DNA of 64,000 nucleotides from Escherichia coli (GTDB lineage: Bacteria; Pseudomonadota; Gammaproteobacteria; Enterobacterales; Enterobacteriaceae), in assembly GCF_048403405.1 (NCBI RefSeq), contig NZ_CP183135.1; one strand, 5' to 3'. A program made the position numbers and the translations under genes. Position 1 is the stretch's first letter. Each line of letters begins with the position of its first letter. Below are positions 41,378 to 45,586 of this stretch, in pieces. The notes under the pieces were generated by a model. That model made no database searches. It had not been told where the DNA came from and saw only the letters and a list, made by a program, of their open reading frames with translations.

Positions 41378-41882
41378 CATCCTTACTTTTCCGTAAGGAT
41401 TTTAGCGGGTCAAAACAGCGTTCCATGCCGGACTGATGATCTACATACTTAGAGTCACATACCAAAGTAAAACTATGGATGTATGCAAGCCTGCATCGTC
41501 AGGAGGTTAAATTTCAGACCTGCCAGTTACCGCGTAAATGGCTTGATATATGACTAATTTATTTGCACAGGATTTTTACGACAACGCTCTGAACCAGCAG
41601 TTGACGGGATATATAGTTGAGCTCATTACAGATAAAGCTTTTCTGTATCTCTGGCGGTGGTCATAGACCAGTAATCGTTATTGGTTGTTCTATATTATCC
41701 CGTATGACGGTACAACGTTTTTAACAACTGGCGCTGTCACAACATAAGCCACCCCAAAATATTATATGAGTAACAATAGTCTATATAGGAGCGTAAATTA
41801 CCTACTATCAAATACTTACTCCAATAGCATTTCTGTCTATTCTATTTCAATTCTTTAATAGAAAAATAAGGTTAGATAATAT

Positions 41883-42155
41883 ATGACTCCCTCCCCCTAT
41901 CCAAGAAATAACTTTAATACAGAGCTAATTCAATCATGTATGAATGGAGAACACTTTTCACTTTTAATTGAAATATCACCAATCAGAAGTAAAAAAAACA
42001 TCATGGCTCTTAAGGAGTATTTGGTTGATGGTTATTCAAAGCAAGAAAGTTGTGAAAGGAACAATGTTTCCATTAGTTATTTTTGCCTATGCCTAAAAAA
42101 ACTAAACTATACACACAGTATTGTTAGTGCTCTTAAATATTTCTACCGTGAGTAA
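41883..42155 (+). CDS. PapB/FaeA-family fimbrial-type transcriptional regulator (orphan, 90 aa)
   Basis: ...HFSLLIEISPIRSKKNIMALKEYLVDGYSKQESCERNNVSISYF... parallels the PapB motif HFFLLIGISSIHSDRVILAMKDYLVGGHSRKEVCEKY; no fimbrial structural genes nearby. Confidence 0.55.
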   Translation: MTPSPYPRNNFNTELIQSCMNGEHFSLLIEISPIRSKKNIMALKEYLVDGYSKQESCERNNVSISYFCLCLKKLNYTHSIVSALKYFYRE

Positions 42156-43001
42156 ACTGTAACTGAAGTCTTGATTCTTACGCTTAGACACTGCTAAGCC
42201 GTTATGGCATAGCTGATAATTTATATTGCACTATGTCAGCTACTGTAAGATAATATAAGCTATTTTAAAGAAAACTCTGTCATTCATCATTTTGTTTAAT
42301 GATAGGTTTTGTTATTAATATAAAAGAACATGCTCATTCATTAAAATAAAAACAAGATGTTCTTTTATTATTTTCATTCCCTACGGGGTTAGTCCTTGAT
42401 TCATTTTCAGTATCTTCTAACTCATTCATTTGCCGATTACTTTAATTCACAGTCTTGTTTTTTATCCTGCCTATTGGAGATAAAAGTGGTATCGATGGAT
42501 GCCGAGTGTGTTGCACATGCAGTATTCTCAGGAATAAGAACTGTCACTTCCAAAACACGCGATATATGATTGAATCTCTGTGGGGGGATAAAAACTTGCC
42601 TTTTTCCGCAGTCTGAAAACAGGATGGGGGCGACGGATGGTTACGCAGGCAAGGGCGAGGTTCGGAAATAAATCAGAGATTATATTCTGAATTATTACAA
42701 TAGCACCAGACCTCACCATTACAACGGTAGTTTGACGCTGGAGGGATCAGAAAACAGATACCGTTTTTACTGTAAACGGTGGTCATATATGGACTCTCCT
42801 GGTGATATAAGTACTGGTTCGAAACGGTTTACGACTATATATCCGGCGTCATCAGTAGGTTCAATGAACCGCGCAATAATGTTATCCGAGCCCTGTTTCC
42901 TAATCACTACGCCGGTATTTGATTAGCCAAGTCAAGTTCATCTTGCCATCACTATTTTTCCATACCGCATTACTATCTAATACAGTCGCACGAGCGGCCT
43001 T

Positions 43002-44170
43002 CTAATTTGAGGGTTTCGAGCCCTGAAGAGGCATATCCCATCGTTTTACAGATATTGCAGAAATTGGTACGCAATATGCTGCTTCTTCCTGGAGTTTCTT
43101 CCTGGTATTTGTATCGAAGTCTACATTAAGCAGGTCGAACTTCCAGCTTTCCCGATAAAACCTTATAATATCCTTGGGACAAAGGAGAATAAACTGGTTT
43201 GTCGTAAACATAGAAACAGCCTGCACAGAGTAATATTCCCCCGGTTTTATATTTTTTTTACCCCATACTGCATTGGAAAAAAACTCCTCCGGATATTCAC
43301 TTGTTTTAATAATGTAGCTATGTATTTTGAAGTCACTTATACCTGAGAGCTTAATAACTGAATGGGTAAAAATTACTGGTAATACGGTTATTTGAGTCGA
43401 TATAACTAATAATATCATCAAGGATGCGACAAATGCAGAACTAATTCTTTTAGAAAGTTTATGCTGTGGATTCATTTTTAGATAAATGAGGCCGGGAAGT
43501 ATTGTCAGAATAAAAATAAAATATGACATGAAAGCCAGTTCAGCTATCACTTTGAAATTAATACTCTTATCTGAAGTTTCAATATTCCTAAAAACCATCT
43601 CCAGTGGAATTACCTGAAGATGCACCAGTAAAGCAATAGACAACGGAATGATAAGATAGATCTGAACACGTCTCAACAGTTTCATTCTATTATTTTTAAA
43701 CGATAAGTCATATTCAAGATACCTCGTGTTTATTATGGCTGAAATAACAACTATTAGTACTCCTATACTTAAAATAGATAACCAGCCAGAGTTATCTTTA
43801 ACACTCTGGTCAAAATCAAATGCACAGTATAACACGTATATAAAGGCCATGGGGAAGAGGCCAGATAACATCATTACAGATAAAAAATTACCCTGAATCT
43901 TATTGTAAGCAGGAAGATTTTTTATATCATAAGGAATAACTATTGGTATAAAAAAAGATGTTATAAAAAAATAAAAATGATCATAATCAATGATAGAATA
44001 GTTGTACAACAAACCAATACCAAGATGCTTTTAATATTCATCACATCAAAGAAAATATCAAGTCGATCCAGACGACTGAAATATCCCCAGAGAACTATCA
44101 ACGCAATCCCTGATATAATACTTGATGGTGTTAATACTGAAACTATTAGCGTCTTCCACTTCTGATTCAT
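43002..44170 (-). CDS. AT-rich multi-pass membrane protein of unknown function, possibly frameshifted (two overlapping ORFs 43961-44170 and 43002-44012)
   Basis: Highly hydrophobic N-terminal two-thirds, about 110-aa hydrophilic C-terminus; the two ORFs overlap near poly-A runs at 43950-43975. Confidence 0.4.
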
Positions 44171-44845
44171 TTTAACTTCCTGGTTTTGCTATAAAGAGAG
44201 CATAAAAAAGAGTGAATAAGTTATTACACTTCATTGTTTGACTCCTCGCAGTAACCTTTCAGGAAGGTTGTCGGATATTTTTGATAAATTATGTCATAAA
44301 CATATTATTGTAAGTAATGATTTCACTAAATTTATTTGATCGTCGTCATAATATTTTTAATCTGAATATAGAAGATGATTGTGTCATATGCAGTATGATA
44401 TAAAACGTTAAAAGTGACTGAATAGATAACAGTTCATGCATGAACAAGACCATAACATAACATAATAAAATATGCTTATTATGCATAACCTTATGTTGTG
44501 ACTAAGCCGCCTTAAAACTGAGAAGTAGCTAAGAATATGGCGTCAGACACCTTCAGTTGTCGTAGAAGGTTATCTGCAGGATTTTTCTCCGTATCTGCCT
44601 GTTCCTGGCATTACCCCAATTCTCCCAAAAACGGCAAACCAGCCCTCAGCCCGCGCCACGACTGGCTTAATACGGGATCCCTGCTGCAAAACATACCTTT
44701 ACGTATTTGGTTTTACCCGCAATAATGCGTGATAAGCAAACAAAAGGATCCGCGCGCTGCGATTTATTGTCGTGGAAGGATCCGGGCGTTCAGGTCAGAA
44801 TACCTGTATCCATAAACAGTGCGTGTGCTACGTGAAAAATAACTC

Positions 44846-45586
44846 ATGAACAATGTCATTCCCCTGCAGAATTCACCAGAACGCGTCTCCCTGTTACCCA
44901 TTGCGCCGGGGGTGGATTTTGCAACAGCGCTCTCCCTGAGAAGAATGGCCACTTCCACGGGGGCCACACCGGCCTACCTGCTGGCCCCGGAAGTGAGTGC
45001 CCTTCTCTTCTATATGCCGGATCAGCGTCACCATATGCTGTTCGCCACCCTCTGGAATACCGGAATGCGTATTGGCGAAGCCCGGATGCTGACGCCGGAA
45101 TCATTTGACCTGAATGGAGTAAGACCGTTTGTGCGGATCCTGTCCGAAAAAGTGCGTGCGCGACGCGGACGCCCGCCAAAAGATGAAGTGCGACTGGTGC
45201 CGCTGACAGATATAAGCTATGTCAGGCAGATGGAAAGCTGGATGATCACCACCCGGCCCCGTCGTCGTGAACCATTATGGGCCGTGACCGACGAAACCAT
45301 GCGCAACTGGCTGAAGCAGGCTGTCAGACGGGCCGAAGCTGACGGGGTACACTTTTCGATTCCGGTCACACCACACACCTTCCGGCACAGCTATATCATG
45401 CACATGCTCTATCACCGCCAGCCCCGGAAAGTCATCCAGGCACTGGCTGGTCACAGGGATCCACGTTCGATGGAGGTTTATACCAGAGTGTTTGCACTGG
45501 ATATGGCTGCCACGCTGGCAGTGCCTTTCACAGGTGACGGGCGGGATGCTGCGGAGATCCTGCGTACACTGCCTCCCCTGAGGTGA
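44846..45586 (+). CDS. int: tyrosine recombinase / integrase associated with the RepFIB replicon
   Basis: 246-aa ORF with C-terminal catalytic signature ...[40 protein letters not shown] (R..HxxR..Y). Confidence 0.8.

Follow-up and report, generated by a model that had tools for sequence, protein, structure and literature searches.

The stretch of Escherichia coli DNA analysed here (contig NZ_CP183135.1; 64,000 nt, referred to in full as the window) contains an AT-rich islet of 3451 bp (41400-44850) located between the remnant of an insertion sequence (IS) and the tyrosine recombinase gene of a RepFIB replicon. The left boundary is an IS2 remnant with an internal deletion (40827-41377, + strand), as indicated by BLASTN against a complete IS2, and is followed by approximately 500 bp of non-coding DNA (41378-41882, +) that becomes more AT-rich toward the intact gene of a 90 amino acid (aa) PapB-family regulator (41883-42155, +). 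Further along lie the decayed 3′ fragment of an IS3-family transposase gene (42601-42776, +), called as a pseudogene by the NCBI Prokaryotic Genome Annotation Pipeline (PGAP) in the identical DNA of plasmids pUM146 and pKP389-2, and, on the opposite strand, the gene of a 389-aa membrane protein with seven predicted transmembrane (TM) segments (43002-44170, −), which carries a −1 frameshift in this window and is recognised from two open reading frames (ORFs) and from intact homologues. Sequence and guanine-plus-cytosine (GC) content mark the AT-rich 5′ region of the membrane gene (44171-44536, −; GC 0.305), in which an AGGAAG ribosome-binding site lies 7 nt ahead of the ATG. The right boundary is the 246-aa tyrosine recombinase of the RepFIB replicon (44846-45586, +), assigned from NCBIfam and PGAP and divergent from the membrane gene. 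The regulator half of this islet is already known, having been published in 2020 for an identical sequence, while the membrane protein belongs to an uncharacterised family for which no new mechanism has been demonstrated.

The mean GC content of 41378-44560 is 0.350, relative to a window mean of 0.505. A 400-bp sliding profile showed troughs of 0.31-0.33 at 41600-42600 and 43200-44600 with values of about 0.5 on either side, and the lowest GC content of any 1200-bp interval in the whole 64 kb (0.303) was seen for the one starting at 43301. A preliminary description made from the sequence alone had regarded the interval as far more AT-rich than the rest of the window, which is so for the mean, but the islet is neither continuously AT-rich nor the sole low-GC patch. 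The two troughs are separated by a spacer (42591-42990) with a GC content of 0.43 that carries the IS3-family fragment, and the gap at 42156-43000, described earlier as non-coding AT-rich DNA, is not of that kind along this part of its length.

The islet is 100% identical to DNA of many E. coli and Klebsiella IncF plasmids, and PLSDB holds at least 773 records with coverage of 80% or more over the 3451 bp. Over a longer span, positions 30000-54000 of the window are base-for-base identical to plasmids of E. coli CRE389 (pKP389-2, NZ_CP166761.1), 774 and 605. PGAP annotation of the identical DNA lists a frameshifted TonB receptor gene, a truncated transposase gene (the IS2 remnant), WP_001322642 (‘adhesin biosynthesis transcription regulatory family protein’), an IS3-family pseudogene at 42601-42776, two hypothetical proteins (one of 290 aa at 43002-43874 and one of 62 aa), the tyrosine recombinase and RepB (RepFIB). 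The RepFIB recombinase is found in at least 5000 PLSDB plasmids, relative to 1296 for the membrane gene, and at the same recombinase-adjacent position an O91:H21 plasmid carries the ehx haemolysin operon and a Klebsiella IncFIB plasmid has IS903B together with an EAL fragment. The occurrence of other cargo beside the RepFIB recombinase therefore fits the separate acquisition that had been suggested for the islet, in keeping with its foreign composition and its setting between IS debris and the recombinase.

The 41883-42155 ORF matches PF03333 with an E value of 1.5e-32 (residues 12-88 aligned to model positions 15-91 of 91) and PHROG 10566, a transcriptional regulator, with an E value of 1.8e-32, consistent with its earlier assignment to the PapB family. 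Fimbrial structural genes had been reported as lacking, and none were found among the ORFs around the islet or in the PGAP annotation of pKP389-2. The gene is neither within nor at the head of an adhesin operon; the islet, the surrounding 24 kb and the annotated equivalent plasmid are all free of genes for pilins, ushers, chaperones or other adhesins, and the protein is an orphan regulator without cognate fimbrial genes. At 90% identity or more, it is encoded by 771 PLSDB plasmids. A tblastn search showed that the protein is 100% identical to that encoded at 11258-11527 of plasmid pMB2 (NZ_MK492688.1), the coordinates given in the original paper, and the accession of the identical RefSeq protein, WP_001322642, is that used for the ‘pMB2 PapB-family’ protein in a 2025 review (PMC12388093). 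In pMB2 the gene, designated Orf G, is a papB/pefB paralogue with no proximal fimbrial genes and with mobility genes on either side (Monarrez & Okeke 2020, PMC7734786), in DNA of ‘noticeably lower G+C content’ that adjoins a conserved hypothetical ORF (PMC7734786). A 32-kb deletion that includes this paralogue results in hyper-autoaggregation, the paralogue cloned alone and supplied in trans tempers the phenotype, and in the fim-deleted host ORN172 pMB2 and the deletion plasmid pRMKO do not differ in aggregation (PMC7734786). The region is reported to be common on plasmids of sequence type 131 (ST131) and other extraintestinal pathogenic E. coli (ExPEC) (PMC7734786).

The window thus repeats the pMB2 arrangement, with the same 90-aa protein, low-GC DNA, no fimbrial genes, flanking transposase and integrase genes and a conserved hypothetical ORF beside the regulator. 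The PapB gene is without difference between the two, whereas the neighbouring membrane and TonB receptor genes of the window are frameshifted, unlike those of most related plasmids. The earlier view of the islet as the least explained stretch of the window is not upheld, as the PapB gene, its low-GC setting, the flanking mobility genes and the neighbouring ‘conserved hypothetical’ ORF had already been published for pMB2 (PMC7734786; PMC12388093, section 3.4).

Comparison with the canonical regulators of the family (PapB, SfaB, FocB, PefB, FaeB and TosR) showed that the PF03333 fold is shared over nearly the whole domain, and the pMB2 protein keeps the Cys equivalent to C65 and the Leu equivalent to L82 (PMC7734786). 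The fim-dependent phenotype of the islet protein also fits the cross-talk to type 1 fimbriae that is characteristic of PapB. However, the islet protein is only 29-32% identical to PapB and PefB and has Lys in place of R61 and Asn in place of F83 of PapB (PMC7734786), and, unlike the canonical regulators, it has neither an adhesin operon of its own nor a divergent PapI partner, and a paired GATC/Lrp switch is lacking 5′ of its gene. Pap-type regulatory regions have two GATC sites about 100 bp apart, whereas the DNA from the IS2 remnant to the PapB start contains one GATC only (41438) and no ORF for a PapI/FaeA-type protein. Because of the single GATC and the lack of a PapI-type gene upstream, a Pap-style Dam/Lrp switch is not evident from the sequence 5′ of the PapB gene. 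A single sigma-70-like match is located in the same DNA (41736-41765), no more than expected by chance. Among more distant relatives, a 73%-identical PapB homologue, which is unannotated, lies 270 bp 3′ of the gene of a 1308-aa autotransporter on the E. coli IncF plasmid pKKo009_1, and the PapB of a Pef-like operon on an E. marmotae plasmid is only 39% identical to that of the window. The PapB clade of the islet may originally have been tied to a non-fimbrial adhesin, as TosR is. If the islet protein acts as canonical PapB does, it would inhibit FimB-mediated OFF-to-ON switching of fimS and raise fimE, and the plasmid would thereby turn down the type 1 fimbriae of its host; the trans-repression model of the publication is accepted here, and the direct mechanism is what we infer.

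The membrane gene had been described as encoding a protein of roughly 390 aa at 43002-44170. The ancestral gene was in effect reconstructed, but the interval is 1169 nt, which is not a multiple of 3, and holds two overlapping ORFs in different frames, 43961-44170 (69 aa, ATG start) and 43002-44012 (336 aa, TTG start). The lesion is a run of seven T residues on the coding strand (A7 on the + strand) at 43965-43971, corresponding to codon 67, relative to T8 in the 99%-identical allele that encodes the intact 389-aa protein. The gene would thus be inactivated, or is mis-sequenced, in this window by a slip from T8 to T7. An 81-nt probe over the T tract gave 795 matching records from 792 of 5426 complete E. 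coli genomes, nearly always plasmid-borne; 20 records match the T7 form exactly and 771 differ by one base, each listed record of the latter spanning 82 nt. The T8 run is confined to the 99% allele, with T6 in the 89% allele and shorter or interrupted runs in orthologues of 50-69% identity. A second lesion is present in the TonB-dependent receptor gene outside the islet, where G5 at 40153-40157 replaces the G6 of reference plasmids and where most related plasmids have an intact 656-aa gene; the window therefore holds two −1 homopolymer frameshifts within 4 kb.

Intact orthologues of 383-391 aa are found at 99%, 89%, 69%, 60% and 50% identity in E. coli, Salmonella, Enterobacter, Lelliottia and E. 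marmotae, and most of the 1296 PLSDB plasmids with the gene gave one unbroken tblastn piece. Pairwise ratios of nonsynonymous to synonymous substitution (dN/dS) among six orthologues range from 0.05 to 0.31, with the membrane part and the C-terminal part alike, and these values indicate that the intact gene is real and under purifying selection. A profile search of 1.84 billion cluster representatives returned 143 at E below 1e-3, the full-length ones mostly of about 375-420 aa. Alignment of 56 family members gave 33 groups at about 35% identity, with identities down to 13%. The conclusion that the protein is without a recognised family was upheld: there was no NCBIfam, PADLOC, PHROGs or PDB match, with only spurious TM-helix matches (E 0.0056 or worse) in a profile search of the PDB, and in Pfam the best i-E value was 0.83 and none of the 56 members matched any family at E 0.001 or better. 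A literature search under its accession, WP_001072358, found nothing. On these sequence comparisons, the protein represents an undescribed, widespread and fast-diverging family of Gammaproteobacteria.

Hydropathy analysis identified seven hydrophobic segments in the membrane protein (residues 7-31, approximately 50-75, 95-118, 127-152, 165-194, 204-233 and 243-273), with Lys and Arg residues clustering at the N-terminus and within two loops (150-168 and 230-245). This positive-inside pattern predicts a cytoplasmic N-terminus and a periplasmic location for the last 115 or so residues. A full-length AlphaFold2 model contained the same helices at modest confidence (predicted local distance difference test, pLDDT, of 65.6), and the C-terminal domain modelled alone from a 45-sequence alignment (pLDDT 81) formed a small beta-barrel with flanking helices, for which no structural similarity to a characterised domain was found. 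The 50 best Foldseek matches listed in AFDB50 either lack characterisation or carry a generic name; they come from Enterobacterales, Pseudomonas, Ralstonia and Burkholderia, and most have the same overall architecture, with full-length ones of about 370-430 aa. Only P226, G277, C331 and C367 are invariant across the 56 members, with W28, S72, W303, L329 and P332 nearly so. As both invariant cysteines lie in the predicted periplasmic domain, C331 and C367 probably form a disulfide bond, and since no acidic, basic or histidine residue is conserved, binding is favoured over catalysis as its role.

Homology between the window and orthologues of 50-73% identity ends at the limits of the ORF, and the surroundings of the gene differ from lineage to lineage. 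In E. coli RepFIB plasmids it is divergent from the 246-aa recombinase, and in IncFIB/FII plasmids of Enterobacter, Lelliottia and ‘Vibrio’ it is divergent from, and about 240 bp away from, an Xer-like recombinase of 325-332 aa. The recombinases of two such plasmids (L003 and L010) are 82% identical and the pairing is kept, while the cargo downstream is wholly different. This downstream cargo varies among the defence candidate HEC-08 (PADLOC E 3e-158), a WYL regulator with an E1-E2-JAB protein, a TerY-P kinase/phosphatase/VWA set and IS elements; in these plasmids the block of Xer-like recombinase and membrane gene resembles a hotspot where defence cargo gathers. On the E. marmotae IncFII plasmid the gene lies between the Pef-like fimbrial operon and a pair of genes of the cyclic oligonucleotide-based antiphage signalling system (CBASS; cyclase E 1e-176, 2TM effector E 2e-79). 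In the Cronobacter sakazakii plasmid pCsaCS09b a relative and a restriction endonuclease gene, the latter adjacent to VapBC, are divergently oriented; on the other side of the relative is a cluster resembling those for lasso peptides or microcins, with an asparagine-synthase-like gene, a PqqD-family gene, a methyltransferase gene and a major facilitator superfamily transporter gene. A 33% relative in Xenorhabdus is located 217 bp 3′ of a TraG_N gene, in a transfer cluster like that of an integrative and conjugative element (ICE), and another member is chromosomal, in an IS-flanked E. coli island. A 26% relative is found in a P2-like prophage on metagenome contigs as a lone opposite-strand gene between the tail-fibre-assembly (Caudo_TAP) and tail-sheath genes, a slot that we take to be the Z/fun accessory position of P2, between G and FI. 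The same prophage carries an AAA_15/AAA_21 ATPase gene just past its baseplate genes. No DNA relative of this prophage copy was found in complete E. coli genomes.

No partner gene is conserved across the contexts examined. The 289-aa and 293-aa proteins encoded upstream in the E. marmotae and IncFIA/FIC plasmids were considered as partners and rejected, being mutually unrelated and without a Pfam match at E 0.001 or better, as were tandem genes in Pantoea, which are not paralogues. A shared recombinase partner was likewise rejected, as the two recombinase types are not orthologous (best local alignment E 0.027). The close-orthologue alignment recovered only 3 loci in 100,044 species genomes, and the 56-member diverse alignment was too divergent for pattern scanning. 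Because homology stops at the ORF, the recombinase is far commoner than the gene and other cargo is found in its place, the membrane gene appears from these comparisons to be solitary cargo of mobile elements at variable sites adjacent to recombinase genes.

This cargo behaviour, the relatives in a prophage slot and after traG, the defence neighbours, the fast divergence with only structural residues conserved and the periplasmic domain together suggest, as a tentative proposal, that the protein may act in the envelope by binding, not by catalysis, and so protect its mobile element or the carrier cell at the membrane. It might exclude phage or conjugative DNA on entry, or serve defence in some other way as a membrane protein. 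In its most specific wording, which is somewhat more doubtful again, a solitary envelope family with seven TM segments and a disulfide-bonded periplasmic beta-barrel, carried by IncF plasmids, ICE-like elements and P2-like prophages, would block phage or conjugative DNA at the inner membrane, or would defend the cell, by means of periplasmic binding.

Known systems resemble the family in part. The entry-exclusion genes traS and eex lie just after traG in F and SXT. Like F TraS and SXT/R391 Eex, the family consists of fast-diverging inner-membrane proteins borne by mobile elements, but of its members only the Xenorhabdus relative is directly 3′ of a TraG_N gene, and the window gene, flanked by IS debris and the RepFIB recombinase, is distant from all tra genes. 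TraS and Eex are also of about 140-170 aa and without a comparable periplasmic domain, so that the 389-aa window protein is more than twice their size, and there is no sequence similarity. The 2TM/SLATT effectors of CBASS are likewise multi-pass membrane proteins beside defence genes on mobile elements; the window protein differs in having no PADLOC match, in being solitary with no sensor or cyclase partner kept, and in its predicted seven TM segments and folded periplasmic domain. An accessory and defence gene hotspot has been described within P2 tail genes (bioRxiv 10.64898/2026.02.27.708500). The 26% relative occupies the slot taken as the ‘moron’ position Z/fun, whereas the window copy is on a plasmid, and no relative was found in sequenced phage genomes or the IMG/VR scans; the likeness to Z/fun is one of position.

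Taken with the regulator, these results are best explained, with a probability of roughly 0.7 for the explanation as a whole, by a conserved accessory region of ExPEC-type IncF plasmids in a variable cargo position between the RepFIB recombinase and IS debris. The islet consists of two low-GC, horizontally acquired single-gene segments that were joined and eroded by IS activity, with the deleted IS2 at the left and the IS3-family fragment in the middle, and the PapB and membrane genes are neighbours through history that form no functional system.

Several points weigh against this explanation or parts of it. The link to fimB, fimE and fimS is the inference of the original authors and their assays were indirect (PMC7734786). 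The function proposed for the membrane protein is guilt by association, drawn from genomic neighbourhood only and held with low confidence; the defence neighbours are raw occurrences that are not scaled to the background around arbitrary plasmid cargo, and fimbrial and autotransporter genes are also frequent neighbours, such that an adhesin-related role is possible. PADLOC gave no match for the membrane protein itself and matched only the neighbours of some of its orthologues (CBASS cyclase and 2TM effector, HEC-08, E1-E2/JAB and WYL). In the C. sakazakii chromosome the gene, which many strains have conserved, is located in an unremarkable context between S8 autotransporter and chemoreceptor genes. 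A phage origin was also sought and rejected, with no relative detected by tblastn of the window protein and the 26% prophage relative against 50,697 phage genomes, nor in IMG/VR scans with the 26% prophage relative and the close-orthologue alignment. Since both lesions lie in homopolymers, sequencing error is possible at the frameshift, and we leave undecided whether it is real or an artefact.

On this last point, the alternative is that the frameshift is a homopolymer sequencing or assembly error and that the real plasmid has the intact 389-aa allele, which we regard as a serious possibility although not the favoured one. Both changes, G6 to G5 and T8 to T7, are −1 homopolymer differences within 4 kb that are otherwise identical to hundreds of plasmids, T7 is found in only 20 of about 790 complete-genome records, and the near-identical pKP389-2 also has frameshifts in iucB, iucC and iucD, typical of assemblies prone to homopolymer error. 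However, at least three records (CRE389, 774 and 605) share the double-frameshift haplotype, the T7 form comes from several countries with different IS insertions, and iucB, iucC and iucD are intact in the window, so its source is not generally error-ridden. In pKP389-2 (NZ_CP166761.1 91335-95352) the three iuc genes and other genes are flagged as frameshifted, whereas the window copies (58336-62299) are intact; record quality therefore varies among near-identical plasmids, which bears on the trust that can be placed in homopolymer frameshifts. Envelope proteins of mobile elements are often phase-variable, and the T tract could accordingly be a contingency locus at which slipped-strand mispairing phase-varies the membrane protein, as suggested by a poly-T run early in the gene (codon 67) and by the occurrence of both tract lengths in nature. 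This is very improbable: for slippage to be efficient a tract of 8 nt is short, the ON length accounts for 97% of records, and T8 is restricted to the 99% allele, the 89% allele having T6 and distant orthologues shorter or interrupted tracts.

The remaining alternatives concern how the genes of the islet came together. One is that the islet is the eroded stump of a chaperone-usher fimbrial or other adhesin operon, with the PapB protein its former regulator, the membrane protein a former accessory component and the structural genes lost through IS activity. IS2 and IS3 debris does flank the PapB gene, the FaeA/PapI-family gene past IS2 in the Salmonella 89% variant could be one half of a divided papI-papB pair, orthologues of the membrane gene have fimbrial operons no more than 8 kb away in the Lelliottia, ‘Vibrio’/Enterobacter-type and E. 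marmotae plasmids, and the 73% PapB homologue is adjacent to an autotransporter gene (270 bp 3′). But no usher, chaperone or pilin remnant was found in the islet, adhesin genes are missing around those relatives of the membrane gene that lie in a prophage, in an ICE or in chromosomal islands, no Pap-type switch with paired GATC sites lies 5′ of the PapB gene, and the two genes are convergent here but co-directional in the E. marmotae plasmid. In that plasmid the PapB protein is 39% and the membrane protein about 52% identical to that of the window, so the two were not co-inherited. Such an origin is therefore unlikely, and, as far as the earlier expectations for this locus go, no well-characterised family was found for the membrane protein and the segment is not demonstrable as a degraded fimbrial operon. 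Regulation by PapB of the adjacent membrane gene, with the membrane protein as the true effector of the aggregation phenotype, is less probable again. It would account for the co-occurrence of the two in about 770 PLSDB plasmids (PapB in 771, the islet in at least 773), for the same arrangement in the approximately 98%-identical pSCU-105-1 lineage and for the fact that the 32-kb pMB2 deletion with hyper-aggregation spanned the region (PMC7734786). Against it, cloned PapB alone complemented the phenotype and the pMB2/pRMKO difference was lost in the fim-deleted host (PMC7734786), the genes are convergent with IS debris between them, more than 500 plasmids and all distant lineages have the membrane gene but not PapB, the converse is seen for a PapB relative, and in this window the membrane gene is broken while PapB is intact. 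Slightly ahead of both, but still unlikely, is a role for the membrane protein in the plasmid backbone, coupled to the tyrosine recombinase, for instance by forming or flanking its target site or through a maintenance function, rather than in defence or exclusion. A divergent pairing about 240-680 bp apart is seen in three lineages and is retained by the 82%-identical recombinases despite different downstream DNA, yet the two recombinase types are not orthologous (E 0.027), and the pairing therefore looks like repeated capture beside recombination or hotspot sites. At most about a quarter of the plasmids with the RepFIB recombinase have the membrane gene, members in the E. marmotae and IncFIA/FIC plasmids, the prophage, the ICE and the chromosome have no adjoining recombinase, and a periplasmic domain is hard to connect with DNA recombination.

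An accessory region composed of historical neighbours is thus the preferred explanation, and it matters as the islet travels on IncF plasmids of pandemic ExPEC lineages. The PapB paralogue provides a documented example in which a resistance plasmid reprogrammes the chromosomal adhesins of its host, with a bearing on colonisation, on conjugation efficiency and on virulence-gene profiling, which usually ignores it. The membrane protein is among the commonest plasmid-borne E. coli proteins without a family, fold or function, and the architecture, family and cargo behaviour defined here make it readily testable. If the exclusion or defence proposal were true, about 15% of complete E. coli genomes would carry an unrecognised determinant beside RepFIB. 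In this window, the regulator is intact, and the membrane and TonB receptor genes are broken, or mis-sequenced, at homopolymers.

The IS debris allows part of the history of the islet to be traced. The IS2 remnant consists of the first 533 bp of the element (orfA and the start of orfB) joined to its last 23 bp, and is therefore not a complete copy; in BLASTN comparison with the complete IS2 of a Salmonella plasmid (L008), 40827-41359 corresponds to 10670-10138 and 41355-41377 to 9369-9347, with the orfA of the remnant at 40877-41287. In this Salmonella plasmid, which carries the 89% variant, the complete IS2 (9347-10670) abuts the equivalent of window position 42881, directly 3′ of the membrane gene, and the PapB segment is wholly absent; its absence is most simply explained, from the alignment, by a deletion adjacent to IS2. 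Beyond IS2 the Salmonella variant has a FaeA/PapI-family gene and an asrABC-like sulfite reductase operon. On the E. marmotae plasmid asrC adjoins the Pef-like operon, which, with the Salmonella variant, hints at a common ancestral asr-fimbrial region. For the IS3-family fragment at 42601-42776, a 19-residue C-terminal motif in a stop-bridged translation matches positions 334-364 of 369 of the NCBIfam model transpos_IS3 (E 0.0097), and no significant blastx similarity to a set of IS3-family transposases was found. Its identity as an IS3-family fragment would thus rest on the NCBIfam motif and the PGAP call, which agree with each other.

The product of 44846-45586 scores with NCBIfam XerA, XerD, XerC and integron-integrase models at E values of 2e-15 to 3e-12, all under the curated equivalog cut-offs, and is for this reason classed as a member of the tyrosine recombinase family and not as a specific Xer orthologue. 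Between the recombinase and the membrane gene, a 62-aa ORF (44537-44725, +), taken from annotation, coincides with the return to normal GC content. No family match was found for it in NCBIfam, PADLOC or PHROGs, and the substitution pattern relative to its counterpart beside the Salmonella 89% allele (16 nt differences, 9 aa changes) shows no third-position bias; it is probably a spurious call and not a gene. RefSeq carries it as a ‘hypothetical protein’; some GenBank entries name it ‘serine/threonine protein kinase’, a label without any support. No Rfam match at E 1 or better was found within 41200-45000, promoter-like sites show no excess over shuffled sequence (12 versus 14.8), and repeats are limited to short, chance-like two-copy matches. 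Terminator-like hairpins number 6, relative to 2.0 expected, with none assignable to a role.

Outside the islet, the frameshifted gene to the left encodes a TonB-dependent receptor of the haem/transferrin type (38671-40640, −), present as ORFs of 454 and 168 aa and annotated by PGAP as ‘frameshifted’ in pKP389-2. To the right, beyond the recombinase, lies the gene of the RepFIB replication initiator RepB (45871-46848, −), identified from its ORF and PGAP and included for context only. Another low-GC patch of the window (11000-13300, GC 0.34-0.38) corresponds to a tet(B)/tetR(B)/tetC module beside an IS10-like transposase gene.

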